NCBI RefSeq assembly: GCF_003334315.1
Contig: NZ_QOWR01000004.1
DNA from: Escherichia coli
GTDB lineage: Bacteria; Pseudomonadota; Gammaproteobacteria; Enterobacterales; Enterobacteriaceae
Length of the DNA stretch: 64,000 nucleotides
Reading direction: 5' to 3' (one strand)
The position numbers and the translations under genes were made by a program. Below the pieces are notes generated by a model. It was not told the DNA's origin and did no database searches. It saw only the letters and a list, made by a program, of their open reading frames with translations. Positions 5,029 to 13,235 of the stretch are shown piece by piece. How positions within the stretch are numbered: the stretch's first letter is position 1; every line of letters begins with the position of its first letter.

Positions 5029-6282
5029 CTATTTTTGCGCCGATTCTTTACTGTCAGCTTTCGTTTCTAGTTCATCGTTATCGCTGAAAATACCATGACC
5101 TGAGTTCAACAACATTGAAACGAGCATATCATTATTAATCTCTTCACCATTTAAAACTCGCGCCAGAATTTCGCTGCCAAACAGTTGCGGTGAGAGAATG
5201 ATATCCGGATGTACCATCTTAATCTTATTCAGGTTTTTGCTATCACTGACGGCGAGAACTGTTTTGACATCACTGCTCATATCTTTTGCCGAGAGTACAA
5301 CAAACGCGTTATCTGCATCGTTATCACTCAGCGCCAGAATGGCCCGGCAACGATCGATTCCCGCTTTCTTTAATACAGAACTGTCATTACTGTCACCGGG
5401 GATAACATCAGCATTATCGCCTAAGCGTTGCTCAAGTTGCTTGATATCATCTTCAGGCAAGTTGCTGATAACCGTTACGTTTTGTCCGCGTTGATTCAGT
5501 TGCAGGATCGTATTGATGGCGAGAATCGAATGTCCGCAAACAATAAAATGATCTTTACGATGCATTGTATGATTGTTTCCTTTTACAAGTTTGTTGAATC
5601 CCCCGCGGATAAGCGGACCAAAAATTGAGGTCATAGATGTGGCAAAAACGGTAATGCCGGAAATAATGACCGAAATAGTGAACAATCGTGCTGATTCAGA
5701 AACAGGGACAATATCGCCATAGCCGACGGTTGACATGGTTTCTATCGAAAAATAGAACGCGGTCATCAAACTTTCTATTCGCGGATTAAAACCTTCGCTT
5801 AAATAAAGCGCACCGTAGGTTGAGTAAAACAGTAATGTCGTGAAACTAATAAATGCAAAAATTGTCCCGGCTGCGGCGCTACTGTGGGAGAAGTCTTTGC
5901 GCAGTATCAGCAAAAACACCAGCGTAAAAATGCAAAATCCAATACTAAATTTCAGCCAGGGATAAAAATGCAGGGTGTAAATTAGCGCTATCAACAACAA
6001 AATGATACTGATTGCCCATGCGAGCTTTGCCCGGAACAGTAAGCCAATGGAGTTCAGGACAAGAAAGACGCCGAGCATAAAGAGTGGGGCGTTTGCCAGC
6101 AAGGAGAGATCCAACTCTGAAAATGCTTTGATATGGAAAATATCAAGCAAATTGACCGACATACCATAGATTGTTTTAAAAATAAGCAATCCATTTAAAA
6201 AGACGGCCAGCGCGAGAATGTCGTGCCGAAGGGTCACCCATAAATTTGTTGCTGTTTGTTTGAATGTAGCCCAGTGACTCAC
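5029..6282 (-). CDS. kch: Voltage-gated-like potassium channel Kch (TM pore domain + RCK/TrkA-N domain)
   Basis: GTG start at 6282 gives 417 aa MSHWATFKQ...; K+ selectivity filter TVGYGD visible (ETMSTVGYGDIVP); C-terminal Rossmann-like RCK domain (FIVCGHSILA); longest ORF would start at 6300. Confidence 0.9.
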   Translation of the reverse strand: MSHWATFKQTATNLWVTLRHDILALAVFLNGLLIFKTIYGMSVNLLDIFHIKAFSELDLSLLANAPLFMLGVFLVLNSIGLLFRAKLAWAISIILLLIALIYTLHFYPWLKFSIGFCIFTLVFLLILRKDFSHSSAAAGTIFAFISFTTLLFYSTYGALYLSEGFNPRIESLMTAFYFSIETMSTVGYGDIVPVSESARLFTISVIISGITVFATSMTSIFGPLIRGGFNKLVKGNNHTMHRKDHFIVCGHSILAINTILQLNQRGQNVTVISNLPEDDIKQLEQRLGDNADVIPGDSNDSSVLKKAGIDRCRAILALSDNDADNAFVVLSAKDMSSDVKTVLAVSDSKNLNKIKMVHPDIILSPQLFGSEILARVLNGEEINNDMLVSMLLNSGHGIFSDNDELETKADSKESAQK

Positions 6283-9884: not shown

Positions 9885-10032
9885 ATTAACCAGGATTCTC
9901 AATGCAACTTCTAAATTAATCCAGATCAATAAAGGGTGAATTATCATATGTAATGTGATCTATGTAGGATCATTTGTTACTCCAATGTAGGTATATTCGT
10001 CACGTTTTTATAACCATAACGACGGAGCGGAT

Positions 10033-10671
10033 ATGAAAAAGTTAACAGTGGCGGCTTTGGCAGTAACAACTCTTCTCTCTGGCAGTGCCTTTGCGCATGA
10101 AGCAGGCGAATTTTTTATGCGTGCAGGTTCTGCAACCGTACGTCCAACAGAAGGTGCTGGTGGTACGTTAGGAAGTCTGGGTGGATTCAGCGTGACCAAT
10201 AACACGCAACTGGGCCTTACGTTTACTTATATGGCGACCGACAACATTGGTGTGGAATTACTGGCAGCGACGCCGTTCCGCCATAAAATCGGCACCCGGG
10301 CGACCGGCGATATTGCAACCGTTCATCATCTGCCACCAACACTGATGGCGCAGTGGTATTTTGGTGATGCCAGCAGCAAATTCCGTCCTTACGTTGGGGC
10401 AGGTATTAACTACACCACCTTCTTTGATAATGGATTTAACGATCATGGCAAAGAGGCAGGGCTTTCCGATCTCAGTCTGAAAGATTCCTGGGGAGCTGCC
10501 GGGCAGGTGGGGGTTGATTATCTGATTAACCGTGACTGGTTGGTTAACATGTCAGTGTGGTACATGGATATCGATACCACCGCCAATTATAAGCTGGGCG
10601 GTGCACAGCAACACGATAGCGTACGCCTCGATCCGTGGGTGTTTATGTTCTCAGCAGGATATCGTTTTTAA
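10033..10671 (+). CDS. ompW: Outer membrane protein W (8-stranded beta-barrel)
   Basis: 212-aa ORF with signal peptide MKKLTVAALAVTTLLSGSAFA and C-terminal aromatic residue (…AGYRF); matches recalled OmpW. Confidence 0.95.
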   Translation: MKKLTVAALAVTTLLSGSAFAHEAGEFFMRAGSATVRPTEGAGGTLGSLGGFSVTNNTQLGLTFTYMATDNIGVELLAATPFRHKIGTRATGDIATVHHLPPTLMAQWYFGDASSKFRPYVGAGINYTTFFDNGFNDHGKEAGLSDLSLKDSWGAAGQVGVDYLINRDWLVNMSVWYMDIDTTANYKLGGAQQHDSVRLDPWVFMFSAGYRF

Positions 10672-10680
10672 TTCCGCACA

Positions 10681-10707
10681 AAAACGACCCCGTAATATAC
10701 GGGGTCA
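10681..10707 (-). terminator. Intrinsic terminator downstream of yciE (also closes ompW)
   Basis: Hairpin gaccccg-taatata-cggggtc (10686-10706); on the minus strand it is followed by GTTTTTG. Confidence 0.7.
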
Positions 10708-10730
10708 ATAAGGACATGGTATAAAGGGTA

Positions 10731-11237
10731 TTATTTCTTCGCTTCTACGCCATCAGTTTCAGAGCGAATTAAAAATTTCTCAGTTGTTTGCGGAATATTC
10801 TGAATCAGCCAGTCGGCCATTTGCTTTTCCTCATTTAAAATCGCTTCGATGGTTGGAATTGAAGCTGTATCACCGGCATTTTTTGCTGCTGCTAATAGTG
10901 AGGTGTAACAGGCGATTTCAAATTGCTCGAAGACATATCCGCTAATAGAGCCTTTGACTATTTCATCAGAAGGGAATATACCACCGATTGACTGCCCAAG
11001 CGCAGCCATTTTACTCATGGAATCTTTAATGACTGAACGTGAAATGTCATTACGATCAAGAATAGTTTCCAGTTGAACAATCTGGTTTTTGGTTTCACTA
11101 AGATGTTGTTCAATACGAGCGCGTAGTTCAGGATAATTATCTATACGGCTGGCCATGGATTCAAGCATAGATTCGGCTTGCTTTTCCATTGCGTGGGCGT
11201 CACGTAACCAGTCATGATAATGTTCAATACGATTCAT
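10731..11237 (-). CDS. yciE: Ferritin-like stress protein YciE
   Basis: 168-aa ORF MNRIEHYHDWLRDAHAMEKQAESMLESMASRIDNYPEL...; paralogue of YciF; matches recalled YciE. Confidence 0.9.
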   Translation of the reverse strand: MNRIEHYHDWLRDAHAMEKQAESMLESMASRIDNYPELRARIEQHLSETKNQIVQLETILDRNDISRSVIKDSMSKMAALGQSIGGIFPSDEIVKGSISGYVFEQFEIACYTSLLAAAKNAGDTASIPTIEAILNEEKQMADWLIQNIPQTTEKFLIRSETDGVEAKK

Positions 11238-11282
11238 GAAAATGTCCTCTTTATAAAATGACTAAAAGTTAAAATTCATATT

Positions 11283-11783
11283 TCAGGCTTTATTTTCGGC
11301 TTTCTTATTTACGTTATTAATGGCCAGATCAGTCAGTTTGATGTCGGTGGCCTTTTCTTCTTCCAGGGTTTCTTTCAGAAGCTTCGCTGCTTTACGGTAA
11401 CCTAATTGTTCAGCCAGCGTCGCTAATGTCCCGTAACTGGCAATCTCATAATGCTCGACTTTCTGTGCTGCGGCAATCAGTGCGGCATCACGCACTTCGT
11501 TTTTCTCGGTACTTTCGATGACCTCATTAGCTTCTTCAATAAGACCTTCCATTGCCACACATTTCATGCGCTTAATTTTCAGGTTCGATTCGGACTCCAC
11601 AACTTGATCAATACGTTCAATCTGTCCATGAGTTTCCTCGAGGTGCGCATGAAAAGCCTGACTTAATTTTTCATTTGATGTTGCTCTTGCGAGTTTTGCC
11701 AGTGCCCGGGTTAATTGTTTTTCTGCGCTGTAGGTATCTGAAAGCAGGTGAATAAATACATCTTCAATGGTCTTCATATTCAT
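11283..11783 (-). CDS. yciF: Ferritin-like stress protein YciF
   Basis: Internal ATG at 11783 gives 166 aa MNMKTIEDVFIHLLSDTYSAEKQL...; matches recalled YciF. Confidence 0.9.
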   Translation of the reverse strand: MNMKTIEDVFIHLLSDTYSAEKQLTRALAKLARATSNEKLSQAFHAHLEETHGQIERIDQVVESESNLKIKRMKCVAMEGLIEEANEVIESTEKNEVRDAALIAAAQKVEHYEIASYGTLATLAEQLGYRKAAKLLKETLEEEKATDIKLTDLAINNVNKKAENKA

Positions 11784-11868
11784 ATTTTTCTCCAGTGAAA
11801 TCACTGCGAGCCATACGGCCCGCAGATGCAATTATCTTTATCAGCTGATATTAATAATTAACGGTGAA

Positions 11869-12048
11869 TCAGGATTTGCCTGATTTATTACCACCGCTTT
11901 GTTGACCGCCTTTTTTACCCGCTTCAGATGCGCGTTGCGGATCATTTTTAAAATTACCGCCGCTATGCTGACCGCCTTTACGGCCTGCGTCGGATGCCTT
12001 CTCACGGTCTTCGGCGAAATTTCCTGAACCACCACGATGTTCGGCCAT
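11869..12048 (-). CDS. yciG: Small Gly-rich stress protein YciG (KGG-repeat family)
   Basis: ATG at 12048 gives 59 aa MAEHRGGSGNFAEDREKASDAGRKGGQHSGGNFKNDPQRASEAGKKGGQQSGGNKSGKS with internal repeated motif; matches recalled YciG. Confidence 0.8.
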   Translation of the reverse strand: MAEHRGGSGNFAEDREKASDAGRKGGQHSGGNFKNDPQRASEAGKKGGQQSGGNKSGKS

Positions 12049-12396
12049 GTTATTTCTCCCGTTGCGTTGCATTGTTTCATTAATATGAGTGTTGTGTGTC
12101 GACACTCATTAAAATTAGTCGCTAATGAGAATTAGTCAAATTAAGCGCAACGAGAAGATAGAGGGAAAATATATTTTGAGGAACATTCTGGATATATTAA
12201 CAATTACCTGAGGAATAAGTGACTTAGAGAAAATTATTGATTTTACTGGTGTTATGTTGCGGGATTAATTTGTTTGATTATATTACTGTTGGGCGGAAAA
12301 ATGACGTAAGTTGACGTTCGACCGGGGTAAGCGAAACGGTAAAAAGATAAATATTAAATGAATTTAGGATTTTTCCGGCTTCATTAAAGAAAGTTA

Positions 12397-12424
12397 AAAT
12401 GCCGCCAGCGGAACTGGCGGCTGT
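12397..12424 (-). terminator. trp operon terminator (trp t)
   Basis: Minus strand reads cagccgccagttccgctggcggcatttt: GC-rich hairpin plus T-run immediately after the trpA stop; matches the known trp t sequence. Confidence 0.85.
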
Positions 12425-12428
12425 GGGA

Positions 12429-13235
12429 TTAACTGCGCGTCGCCGCTTTCATCGGTTGTACAAAAACTTTCAGTGCCGCCAGCATTTTCTCTGGCTCATT
12501 AATATGTTGCTCGATGATTTTAACAATGGCCGAACCAGAAATCGCGCCCGCAGCTCCTGCATCAATCGCTGCTTTTACCTGATCCGGGGCGGAAATACCA
12601 AATCCCTGCAATGGAGGTGCAGCGTTGTACTCTTTCAGCTTCGCAACCAGATGATTGAGGGGTAACGCGGCGCGGTTTTCTGCGCCGGTCACGCCTGCTC
12701 GTGACAGCAAATAGGTGTAACCACGACCGTAAGAGGCTATCTGGCGCAGCAGGTCGTCATCGGCATTTGGCGGGCAGATGAAGATAGGTGCGACATTATG
12801 ACGCAACGCGGCCTGGCGGAAGGGCGCGGACTCTTCAACTGGCACATCGGCAACCAGCACCGAATCGACGCCGACTTTTTCGCACTGGGCATAAAACTCA
12901 TCAATGCCTTTGTTAAACACCAGATTGGCATACATCAACAGGCCAATGGGAATGGTCGGGTGTTTCTGGCGAATCAGTGCCAGCATTTCAAAACATTGTG
13001 CCGGAGTCACACCTGCCGCAAAGGCGCGCAGAGTGGCGTTTTGAATCGTCGGGCCATCCGCCAGTGGGTCGGAGAAGGGGATACCTAACTCCAGCGCGTC
13101 AGCACCGGCTTCAATTAGCGTATCGATAATTTTCAATGACTGCTCAATGCCCGGATCACCGAGCGTGACGAAAGGAACGAATGCGCCTTCTTTGCGCTCC
13201 TTCAACTGGGCAAACAGAGATTCGTAGCGTTCCAT
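12429..13235 (-). CDS. trpA: Tryptophan synthase alpha subunit
   Basis: 268-aa [37 protein letters not shown]...; start overlaps trpB stop; matches recalled TrpA. Confidence 0.97.

Follow-up and report, generated by a model that had tools for sequence, protein, structure and literature searches.

The KGG repeat of the Escherichia coli stress protein YciG: period, age and possible function

Proteins of the KGG family (PF10685) are very widespread, and their genes are among those most strongly induced by stress and in biofilms. YciG of Escherichia coli is the founding member of a group within this family that also includes YmdF and STM14_1829 (SEN1538), and these proteins share the same length, two KGG repeats and a link to RpoS. 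The C-terminal tail differs between copies, being GGNKSGKS in E. coli YciG and of the HGGGRKSD type in the catalase-linked and Salmonella-type copies. Further afield, GsiB of Bacillus subtilis is like YciG in being hydrophilic, induced by a stress sigma factor and composed almost entirely of tandem repeats that end in KGG. The GsiB unit has about 20 residues (…ATSxNHDKEFYQEIGxKGGE) and occurs in more copies than the YciG unit, and the gene is under σB control, not σS control. The group 1 LEA (Em) proteins of plants are disordered hydrophilins with a repeated 20-mer that contains GRKGG, and the GsiB repeats have been described as homologous to this 20-mer (Stacy & Aalen 1998). In contrast to these plant proteins, YciG is bacterial and much shorter, differs between the motifs and gives no match to the LEA_5 model. 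Pseudomonas aeruginosa PA2146 and Klebsiella YmdF1-3 are likewise small KGG proteins and are strongly induced in biofilms (PMC9262955). Finally, con-10 of Neurospora crassa, a fungal developmental gene, is likened to YciG by annotation names alone, some database entries calling enterobacterial homologues 'Conidiation-specific protein 10'.

The gene, its repeat, the disorder of its product, its family, operon, regulators and paralogues are already recorded in databases and papers, and YciG is therefore known territory, with an architecture typical of its family and an operon that has itself been described. Beneath this familiar picture, how old is the repeat, and what does a protein of such simple composition do in the cell? 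Here, these questions are approached from one E. coli locus through self-comparison of the protein, profile searches of the family, structure prediction and a survey of gene neighborhoods in related genomes.

The yciG locus between trpA and ompW

The stretch of DNA analysed, 64,000 nt in all and called the window below, includes the trp-ompW region of E. coli, and the yciG-yciF-yciE cluster lies in it between trpA and ompW (Table 1). The first gene of the cluster starts with ATG and encodes MAEHRGGSGNFAEDREKASDAGRKGGQHSGGNFKNDPQRASEAGKKGGQQSGGNKSGKS, a product of 59 aa. An earlier note, made from the sequence alone, had named this product YciG, and RefSeq bears this out: in thousands of E. coli genomes the identical 180 nt are labelled either 'yciG: general stress protein' or 'con-10 family general stress protein', and 4599 of the 5426 complete genomes of E. 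coli contain the gene at a coverage of at least 80%. Two Pfam PF10685 matches within the protein likewise confirm the KGG motif that the note had seen. The identification of the frame as yciG, which heads the yciG-yciF-yciE stress cluster and encodes a member of the KGG-repeat family (PF10685) in the company of YmdF, STM14_1829, PA2146, GsiB and con-10, is thus near certain.

Table 1. Features of the yciG region, with positions in the window
Feature	Position	Strand	Basis or remark
ompW	10033-10671	+	
Terminator-like hairpin and T-run 3' of yciE	10685-10707	-	Probable end of the yciGFE unit
yciE, DUF892 ferritin-like paralogue	10731-11237	-	45 nt downstream of yciF
yciF, DUF892 ferritin-like	11283-11783	-	85 nt downstream of yciG
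yciG coding sequence, 59 codons and stop	11869-12048	-	Open reading frame and translation; identical 180 nt are yciG in RefSeq E. coli
Tail GGNKSGKS, residues 52-59	11872-11895	-	Fits GxxxxGK[ST]; probably fortuitous
KGG unit 2, residues 32-53, NFKNDPQRASEAGKKGGQQSGG	11890-11955	-	PF10685 at residues 32-52, E = 3.5e-8; repeat D1
KGG unit 1, residues 10-31, NFAEDREKASDAGRKGGQHSGG	11956-12021	-	PF10685 at residues 10-30, E = 4.9e-9
Degenerate N-terminal unit start HRGGSG, residues 4-9	12022-12039	-	Direct reading of the sequence; resembles [KR]KGGQxSGG of the full units
Shine-Dalgarno GGGAGA	12055-12060	-	From sequence; about 6-7 nt 5' of the yciG ATG
Inverted repeat TGAGTGT-N9-ACACTCA	12086-12108	-	Start of the predicted leader; contains the palindrome GTGTCGACAC (12096-12105)
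Predicted yciG promoter	12112-12139	-	-35 TTGACT (12139-12134), 16-nt spacer, -10 TAATTT (12117-12112), C at -13 (σS-type)
Terminator-like hairpin 3' of trpA	12401-12421	-	Separates yciG from the trp operon
trpA	12429-13235	-	Followed by trpB and trpC

The three genes are co-oriented and closely spaced, as had been noticed, with intergenic gaps of 85 and 45 nt. The ferritin-like character of the two partners also holds, since both match crystallised proteins over their full length: YciF matches PDB 2gs4 (E = 1e-98) and Pfam DUF892 (E = 5e-52), and YciE matches PDB 3ogh (E = 4e-106). With 25% identity, YciF and YciE are distant paralogues of each other. Terminator-like sites on the minus strand occur only 3' of trpA and 3' of yciE, with none between them. 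The cluster therefore fits an operon layout of three co-oriented genes with short gaps, one predicted upstream promoter and one downstream terminator-like site. An NCBIfam scan of YciG, YciF and YciE returned no match. The only Rfam match for the window locus was an sroD-like one at the terminator of trp; with E = 0.23 and 21.9 bits, where the gathering score is 50, it fell below threshold and was set aside as a chance match.

In composition, the locus differs from its neighbor. The 380-nt spacer between trpA and yciG has 36-38% G+C and the yciGFE cluster 39-44%, against 52-59% in the trp genes, and this low G+C content suits the silencing by H-NS that has been reported. Beraud et al. are said to have found in 2010 that the yciGFE locus of E. 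coli K-12 is poorly expressed owing to H-NS. The RpoS dependence of the operon, which the earlier note had given, is stated in the literature, including by way of a citation of Beraud et al. 2010. Papers on yciGFE(katN) describe it as σS-dependent, silenced by H-NS and activated by McbR/YncC.

The internal repeat and its age

The earlier note had also described two copies of a unit of approximately 20 residues and suggested an internal duplication. Self-alignment of YciG leaves the two copies standing and corrects the length of the unit, the period being 22 residues. The best off-diagonal Smith-Waterman score of the protein against itself is 94, whereas 1000 composition-preserving shuffles gave 35.0 ± 6.9 with a maximum of 67, so that the self-alignment is significant (z = 8.6; 0/1000 shuffles reach 94). 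Offset 22 is the sole strong self-diagonal, with 16 identities in 37 positions and a BLOSUM62 sum of 79; all other offsets from 5 to 39 score at most 11. At the DNA level, the same period appears as a direct repeat (D1) of 45 nt at 11887-11931 and 11953-11997, with 78% identity and a spacing of 66 nt. Each of the two Pfam matches, at residues 10-30 (E = 4.9e-9) and 32-52 (E = 3.5e-8), spans model positions 1-22.

The unit takes the form G-N-F-x-x-D-x-x-x-A-S-E/D-A-G-K/R-K-G-G-x-x-S-G, and YciG is made up of almost nothing else, with two full units preceded by a degenerate N-terminal start. When the register is set to begin with KGG, the protein comprises about 2.7 units, HRGG--SGNFAEDREKASDAG / RKGGQHSGGNFKNDPQRASEAG / KKGGQQSGGNKSGKS, whose starts read HRGG--SGNF..., RKGGQHSGGNF... 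and KKGGQQSGGNKSGKS. The N-terminal HRGGSG is best regarded as a worn copy of KGGQxSGG because several relatives keep KGGQxSGGNF at this place in a diverse alignment of the family.

A protein with 24% Gly and a small residue alphabet might be expected to resemble itself by composition alone, and the repeat would then be a mere by-product of low complexity with no true duplication behind it; this is dismissed by the shuffles, which never reach the observed score (0/1000, z = 8.6), by the single sharp diagonal at offset 22, by the 66-nt period of the DNA, by the two profile HMM matches and by the 22-residue period in 131 of 186 inter-repeat spacings of relatives.

These relatives are numerous. 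An HMMER scan of 1.84 billion representatives, clustered at 50%, recovered 599 relatives at E <= 1e-3 and 176 at E <= 1e-10, and a word-indexed search returned 1991 clusters at 90% identity, with PF10685 in every one among those listed. Counted with a profile of the unit, the best 150 of the 599 relatives contain two units in 107 cases, three in 36, four in 2 and one in 5; it is in these same 150 that 131 of the 186 successive unit starts are 22 residues apart. For example, a relative with 81% identity (P0121) has three units, and is thus a close relative with an added unit. Two other proteins (P0196 and P0053) combine GsiB-type (HDKEFYQEIGxKGG) and YciG-type units in one chain. The former matches the KGG profile three times and gives a weak LEA_5 match (E = 0.003) over its GsiB-type part (unit HDKEFYQEIG-KGG), and these mixed units together with the weak match fit the published link between GsiB and LEA proteins. 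As a separate observation, the 68-aa database entries that end in …VINQANPDSPLIINIS stem from yciG variants in which a single-base frameshift leads into the overlapping frame.

Conservation is concentrated in the core of the unit, GNF…A-x-E-A-G-[KR]-K-G-G, which is present in YciG. About 17-20 of the 59 columns are at least 90% conserved across the distant relatives in the diverse alignment, namely G9, N10, F11, A18, A21, G22, K24, G25, G26 and S29, followed by G31, N32, F33, A40, E42, A43, G44, K46, G47 and G48. Within this alignment, the family is conserved least in the C-terminal tail.

The search for paralogues that carry the same repeat yielded two genes. The first, ymdF, is present in essentially every E. 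coli; the gene is flanked by wrbA and rutG, and its product of 57 aa (MANHRGGSGNFAEDRERASEAGKKGGQHSGGNFKNDPQRASEAGKKGGKSSHGKSDN) is about 85% identical to YciG. The second is a catalase-linked copy of 60 aa that heads a yciG-yciF-yciE-Mn-catalase cassette adjoining prophage tail-fibre genes. Of 5426 genomes, 382 have this copy, and many of the 382 are O157:H7. A distant-DNA search of E. coli genomes gave a median of three matching places per genome. The third place proved to be no further universal paralogue: it is an alignment of yciG nt 90-162 to ymdF nt 24-96, one unit out of register and with 78% identity. Such an out-of-register alignment is itself an independent sign of the repeat.

Comparison between these copies dates the duplication. 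Compared with unit 1 of YciG, unit 1 of YmdF shows 86% identity and that of the catalase-linked copy 95%, whereas unit 2 of YciG itself shows 64%, in protein and DNA alike; DNA identities of units across the paralogues follow the same pattern as the protein. Since units at the same position are closer between paralogues than the two units within YciG, the duplication is older than the paralogues. The internal duplication that had been suggested is thus real, but it is old rather than recent in E. coli, as units group by position and the tandem 22-mer is family-wide. It is ancient and defines the family, and the number of units later drifted between one and four across lineages.

Disorder and the proposed function of YciG

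YciG has 23.7% Gly, only three hydrophobic residues, 2 His and no Cys, with a GRAVY of -1.67, a pI of 9.9 and a net charge of +4. A PDB sequence search with YciG recovered no relative even at E = 10. AlphaFold2, supplied with an alignment of 40 sequences, modelled the protein with a mean pLDDT of 61.7 and a pTM of 0.31, and placed in it only two helices, both short (residues 15-24 and 37-47) and one per repeat, which cover the A-S-D/E-A-G-K/R-K segment. On this model, YciG is a protein without a stable tertiary fold. The Salmonella orthologues are reported as confirmed intrinsically disordered proteins (IDPs) by Oguri et al. (2018, J Bacteriol 201:e00415-18).

The composition of YciG (Gly 23.7%, GRAVY -1.67) lies within the range of hydrophilins. 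These proteins are said to have been delimited by Garay-Arroyo et al. in 2000 by a Gly content above 6% and high hydrophilicity. The Pfam LEA_5 model (PF00477) gave no match on YciG even at an independent E-value of 10, for which reason YciG is not filed as a group 1 LEA protein. We infer that YciG is putatively a protein that acts like a group 1 LEA protein, yet is classed outside LEA_5.

The best overall explanation is that YciG is a KGG-repeat member of anciently duplicated structure and a disordered hydrophilin of the LEA/GsiB kind, to which we give a probability of roughly 0.6. The putative mechanism on its own, by which YciG is intrinsically disordered and serves as a hydrophilin much as group 1 LEA proteins and B. 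subtilis GsiB do, is offered tentatively, at even odds or slightly less. YciG would be made from its σS-type promoter at entry into stationary phase or under acid or osmotic stress, and would stay unfolded. In each repeat, one A-x-E-A-G-K-K segment, short and helical only under certain conditions, would be set between flexible linkers rich in Gly, and the tandem units would thereby provide two or three equivalent low-affinity contact sites rich in Lys and Gly, which could shield or bind other macromolecules. YciG would act together with YmdF, with which it may be partly redundant, and oxidative damage would fall to the co-expressed YciF and YciE, joined by the Mn catalase KatN in those genomes that have it.

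Several published phenotypes bear on this mechanism. Acid-growth defects are reported to be modest and to appear only in double or triple IDP mutants, and their restriction to multiple mutants points to redundancy. A paralogue mutant is reported to be stress-sensitive, and PA2146 and ymdF cross-complement between species in biofilm assays (PMC9262955). Against a hydrophilin mechanism stand the strong conservation of columns and the failure of YciG to match LEA_5, the reports that single mutants often have no phenotype, the reports of specific effects on motility and fliC and of a two-hybrid interaction with YhjH, and the poor expression of the K-12 locus attributed above to Beraud et al. The columns conserved at 90% or more exceed what bulk physico-chemistry needs, which points to a specific ligand or partner; in other words, the core of the repeat is too conserved for a purely compositional role.

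Such a partner is what the first alternative supplies. YciG might be a regulatory IDP in which the repeat serves as a short linear motif and takes up its fold on contact with a defined partner, for which PdeH/YhjH or a flagellar regulator are candidates, and which tunes motility and biofilm formation at entry into stationary phase rather than serving as a bulk protectant. A bacterial two-hybrid screen, described in a preprint, recovered yciG three times with the c-di-GMP phosphodiesterase YhjH of Salmonella Paratyphi A, and earlier work cited in the same preprint ties yciG to fliC transcription and swimming. In addition, the family is reported to take part in flagellum-dependent motility, ymdF and PA2146 mutants, the same pair that cross-complement, lose biofilm architecture (PMC9262955), and the core of the repeat shows very strong conservation. 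However, the interaction with YhjH was obtained with the S. Paratyphi A allele and not with that of S. Typhimurium, although YciG is identical in the two, a difference for which the authors have no explanation. Furthermore, the motility phenotypes were not reproduced in S. Enteritidis, and the family extends to organisms and contexts unrelated to flagella, such as Methylobacterium, where the gene adjoins a Mn catalase. On balance, we consider this regulatory role unlikely, though with enough in its favor to be kept in view.

A second alternative looks to the operon partners, the di-iron DUF892 proteins YciF and YciE and, where present, KatN, and would make YciG their dedicated accessory, which in its disordered state would serve them as chaperone, scaffold or metal buffer. 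It was weighed against gene neighborhoods in species-representative genomes, a scan of which gave 80 loci, mostly from Enterobacterales. In 23 of them (yciG type), DUF892 and/or Mn-catalase genes follow the KGG gene directly on the same strand, and this order of KGG, one to three DUF892 and optional Mn catalase recurs in several genera and at different sites. Between one and three DUF892 genes are present in 22 of the 23, with a Mn-catalase gene as well in 9 of the 22; the exception, a Methylobacterium locus (L077), has a Mn catalase alone, directly after the KGG gene. In E. coli, the four-gene cassette of yciG, yciF, yciE and Mn catalase adjoins prophage tail genes. Against a partnership of this kind, 38 of the 80 loci have the KGG gene next to wrbA (ymdF type), where the closest paralogue stands alone, and 19 more have no wrbA, DUF892 or Mn-catalase neighbors. 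Moreover, YciF and YciE were crystallised without YciG, YciG offers no metal site rich in His, Cys or Asp (2 His, no Cys), and strain TUM17543 keeps yciF and yciE while lacking yciG. We judge an accessory role of this sort improbable.

The third alternative, that YciG binds nucleotides through a Walker A motif in its C-terminal tail, has entered the literature: the Pfam family text places a Walker A motif after the KGG, papers have taken up the claim, and in one study (PMC9262955, 2022) the motif is the ground on which YciG is set apart from YmdF, which is said to be without it. Residues 52-59 do fit the pattern. However, in a sequence so rich in Gly, Lys and Ser the pattern also arises in 4.2% of YciG shuffles; YmdF fits it too (GKSSHGKS, residues 48-55), contrary to that study; the catalase-linked copy does not have it; and the tail is where the family is least conserved. 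In the AlphaFold2 model, the motif sits at the end of a disordered chain, with no beta-strand or helix to form a P-loop, and no P-loop family was matched in Pfam. Nucleotide binding is accordingly very improbable, and the Walker A motif of YciG is probably a chance match and no usable defining feature of the family. The distinction between YciG and YmdF that was drawn from it fails, and with it the ground that had kept YciG out of that study.

Promoter, leader and distribution of the locus

The hydrophilin reading has YciG made under stress, and the predicted promoter of the window (Table 1) is of the σS type. Of the 16 loci in other genera with a promoter-like site upstream of a yciG-type gene, 15 show the same arrangement of TTGACx, 16 nt and C-TAnnnT. 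A simple σ70 promoter scan upstream of yciG found none, its thresholds being such that they miss the TTGACT-16-C-TAnnnT site.

At the predicted start of its leader the window has an inverted repeat, the equivalent of the hairpin described below for other genera, that, taken alone, is not significant (P about 0.09); the palindrome within it, GTGTCGACAC, is common to the window and a Salmonella arizonae locus (L023). Genera with a leader about 10 nt longer have a hairpin of 7-12 bp that lies 13-19 nt after the -10 element, among them Kosakonia, Enterobacter, Citrobacter, Lelliottia, Pseudocitrobacter and Phytobacter. The sequence of the stem varies by lineage (GAACATG/CATGTTC, GATACG/CGTATC, CGACACT/AGTGTCG and GATGCGAA/TTTGCATC).

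Measured against dinucleotide shuffles, the leader hairpin gives a Fisher-combined P of 5.6e-8 over 16 sequences, which are related to one another; with one value per stem type, P is roughly 2e-3 by hand calculation. The upstream regions of ymdF-type genes, used as a control, are mildly enriched as well (Fisher P = 0.02 when stems are scored and 0.005 when energy is), and for this reason the hairpin is kept as tentative. An alignment of 12 leaders with MAFFT gave no consensus structure in RNAalifold because the hairpin arms are not column-aligned, so that the evidence for the hairpin is the per-sequence shuffling only. Rfam returned no match on 12 related loci. A leader hairpin of yciG-type genes in related genera is thus tentatively proposed on sequence grounds.

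The yciG-type copy travels with DUF892 and Mn-catalase genes as a cassette, and the σS-type promoter is conserved. Adjacency to trpA is confined to the loci of E. coli and S. enterica subsp. arizonae, and the cassette therefore occupies different chromosomal sites. A bolder proposal, which we regard as a long shot, is that the yciG-type copy is no generic shield but a dedicated partner of DUF892 and Mn-catalase proteins in a mobile cassette against oxidative and desiccation stress that carries its own σS-type promoter and a leader hairpin in many genera. If this were true, the hairpin, whose pairing is kept while its sequence is not, would be an undescribed mRNA element that controls the expression or stability of the cassette.

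Within E. coli the locus varies between strains, and yciGFE-katN has the appearance of a mobile cassette. The yciE-yciG region is present in 4736 of 5426 complete genomes, about 13% being without it. Strain KSEC38 has 50 nt between ompW and trpA; strain TUM17543 has a deletion of yciG alone, with yciF and yciE kept; and some strains have an IS1 between trpA and yciG.

Predicted promoter and tentative leader hairpin of yciG-type genes

Upstream of yciG-type genes (KGG genes with DUF892 and/or Mn-catalase genes directly downstream), the predicted σS-type promoter has a common architecture, with a TTGACT -35 element, a 16-nt spacer, a TAnnnT -10 element and a C at -13 preceding the latter. A consensus scan for promoters missed the site upstream of yciG. 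At yciG-type loci, a tentative leader hairpin lies 13-19 nt past the -10 element and is preceded by a conserved TGAACGAC. Pairing in this hairpin is maintained while the stem sequence varies by lineage, and E. coli carries a weak version. Comparison with shuffled sequences was positive (Fisher P = 5.6e-8, for sequences that are not independent), and the same test was mildly positive on the control set too. RNAalifold found nothing on a MAFFT alignment of the leaders, and the hairpin was without a match in Rfam.

Coordinates of the features discussed (L-numbers are loci from other genomes)
Feature	Location	Strand	Remark
Predicted σS-type promoter of yciG	window 12112-12139	-	conserved across genera
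Leader hairpin, E. coli version	window 12086-12108	-	
Leader hairpin, other loci	L012, L013, L015, L016, L018-L022, L041, L045, L065 at about 5935-5975		
Walker A minimal pattern in YciG	window 11872-11895		GxxxxGK[ST]
Walker A minimal pattern in YmdF	L001:2642-2665		GKSSHGKS
Overlapping frame of 68-aa variants	window 11841-12080	-	other frame
trp-linked yciGFE cluster	window 10700-12430		
IS1 in trpA-yciG spacer	L091:1883-2580		window equivalent about 12380
ompW 5' part	window 9950-10553		
Sub-threshold sroD match	window 12396-12450	-	
Second yciG-yciF-yciE-katN cassette	L002:6001-8214		also in L003-L005

Walker A pattern and variant KGG proteins

YciG was excluded from the experiments of PMC9262955 on the ground of a Walker A motif. 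The E. coli paralogue YmdF also has the minimal pattern, which contradicts that study. The pattern turns up in about 4% of shuffles, and that of YciG shows no conservation in relatives.

Database entries 68 aa long (P0017, P0023 and others) represent yciG alleles that have lost one base near codons 50-52; they continue in the overlapping frame and terminate in …VINQANPDSPLIINIS; they could be true alleles or sequencing errors. In the related proteins P0196 and P0053 (metagenome, Modicisalibacter), GsiB-type repeats (HDKEFYQEIGxKGG) are followed by YciG-type repeats in one natural chain, and these hybrids tie the two repeat subtypes together. P0196 gives three KGG matches and a weak LEA_5 match (E = 0.003).

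Variability of the trp-linked locus and its flanks

The trp-linked yciGFE cluster is absent from roughly 13% of the complete genomes of E. coli. Strains KSEC38 and TUM17543 (L006 and L007) differ in what is missing: in KSEC38, ompW and trpA are adjacent, separated by 50 nt; in TUM17543 the deletion takes only yciG and its promoter region, and yciF and yciE are kept. In several strains of pig, human and crayfish origin, an IS1 element interrupts the AT-rich trpA-yciG spacer ~330 nt before the start of yciG.

On the ompW side, the match starts only at query base 604, within ompW, in a large number of genomes, O157:H7 and some APEC among them. The remainder of the gene is found elsewhere in the record of these genomes, and the local gene is annotated as 'OmpW family outer membrane protein'; this points to an insertion or rearrangement inside ompW. 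On the trp side, a sub-threshold Rfam match to sroD (21.9 bits, E = 0.23; gathering score 50) overlaps the trp operon terminator hairpin; the similarity of the terminator stem to sroD is most likely due to chance.

KGG genes beside wrbA and Mn catalase

A divergent wrbA, which encodes an NAD(P)H:quinone oxidoreductase, lies ~1 kb from the ymdF-type KGG gene at 38 loci (within L026-L090) of the 80 obtained in a single scan of species-representative genomes, across Enterobacterales. These loci have a common upstream motif, ATGCAATATGATGTC, which looks like a -10 region.

A second, complete cassette ends in a Mn-catalase gene (katN), and its neighbours are prophage tail-fibre genes and IS elements. 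Its KGG protein (P0057, 60 aa) is 88% identical to YciG. Of 5426 complete E. coli genomes, 382 carry such a katN-linked cassette, and many of these 382 are O157:H7.
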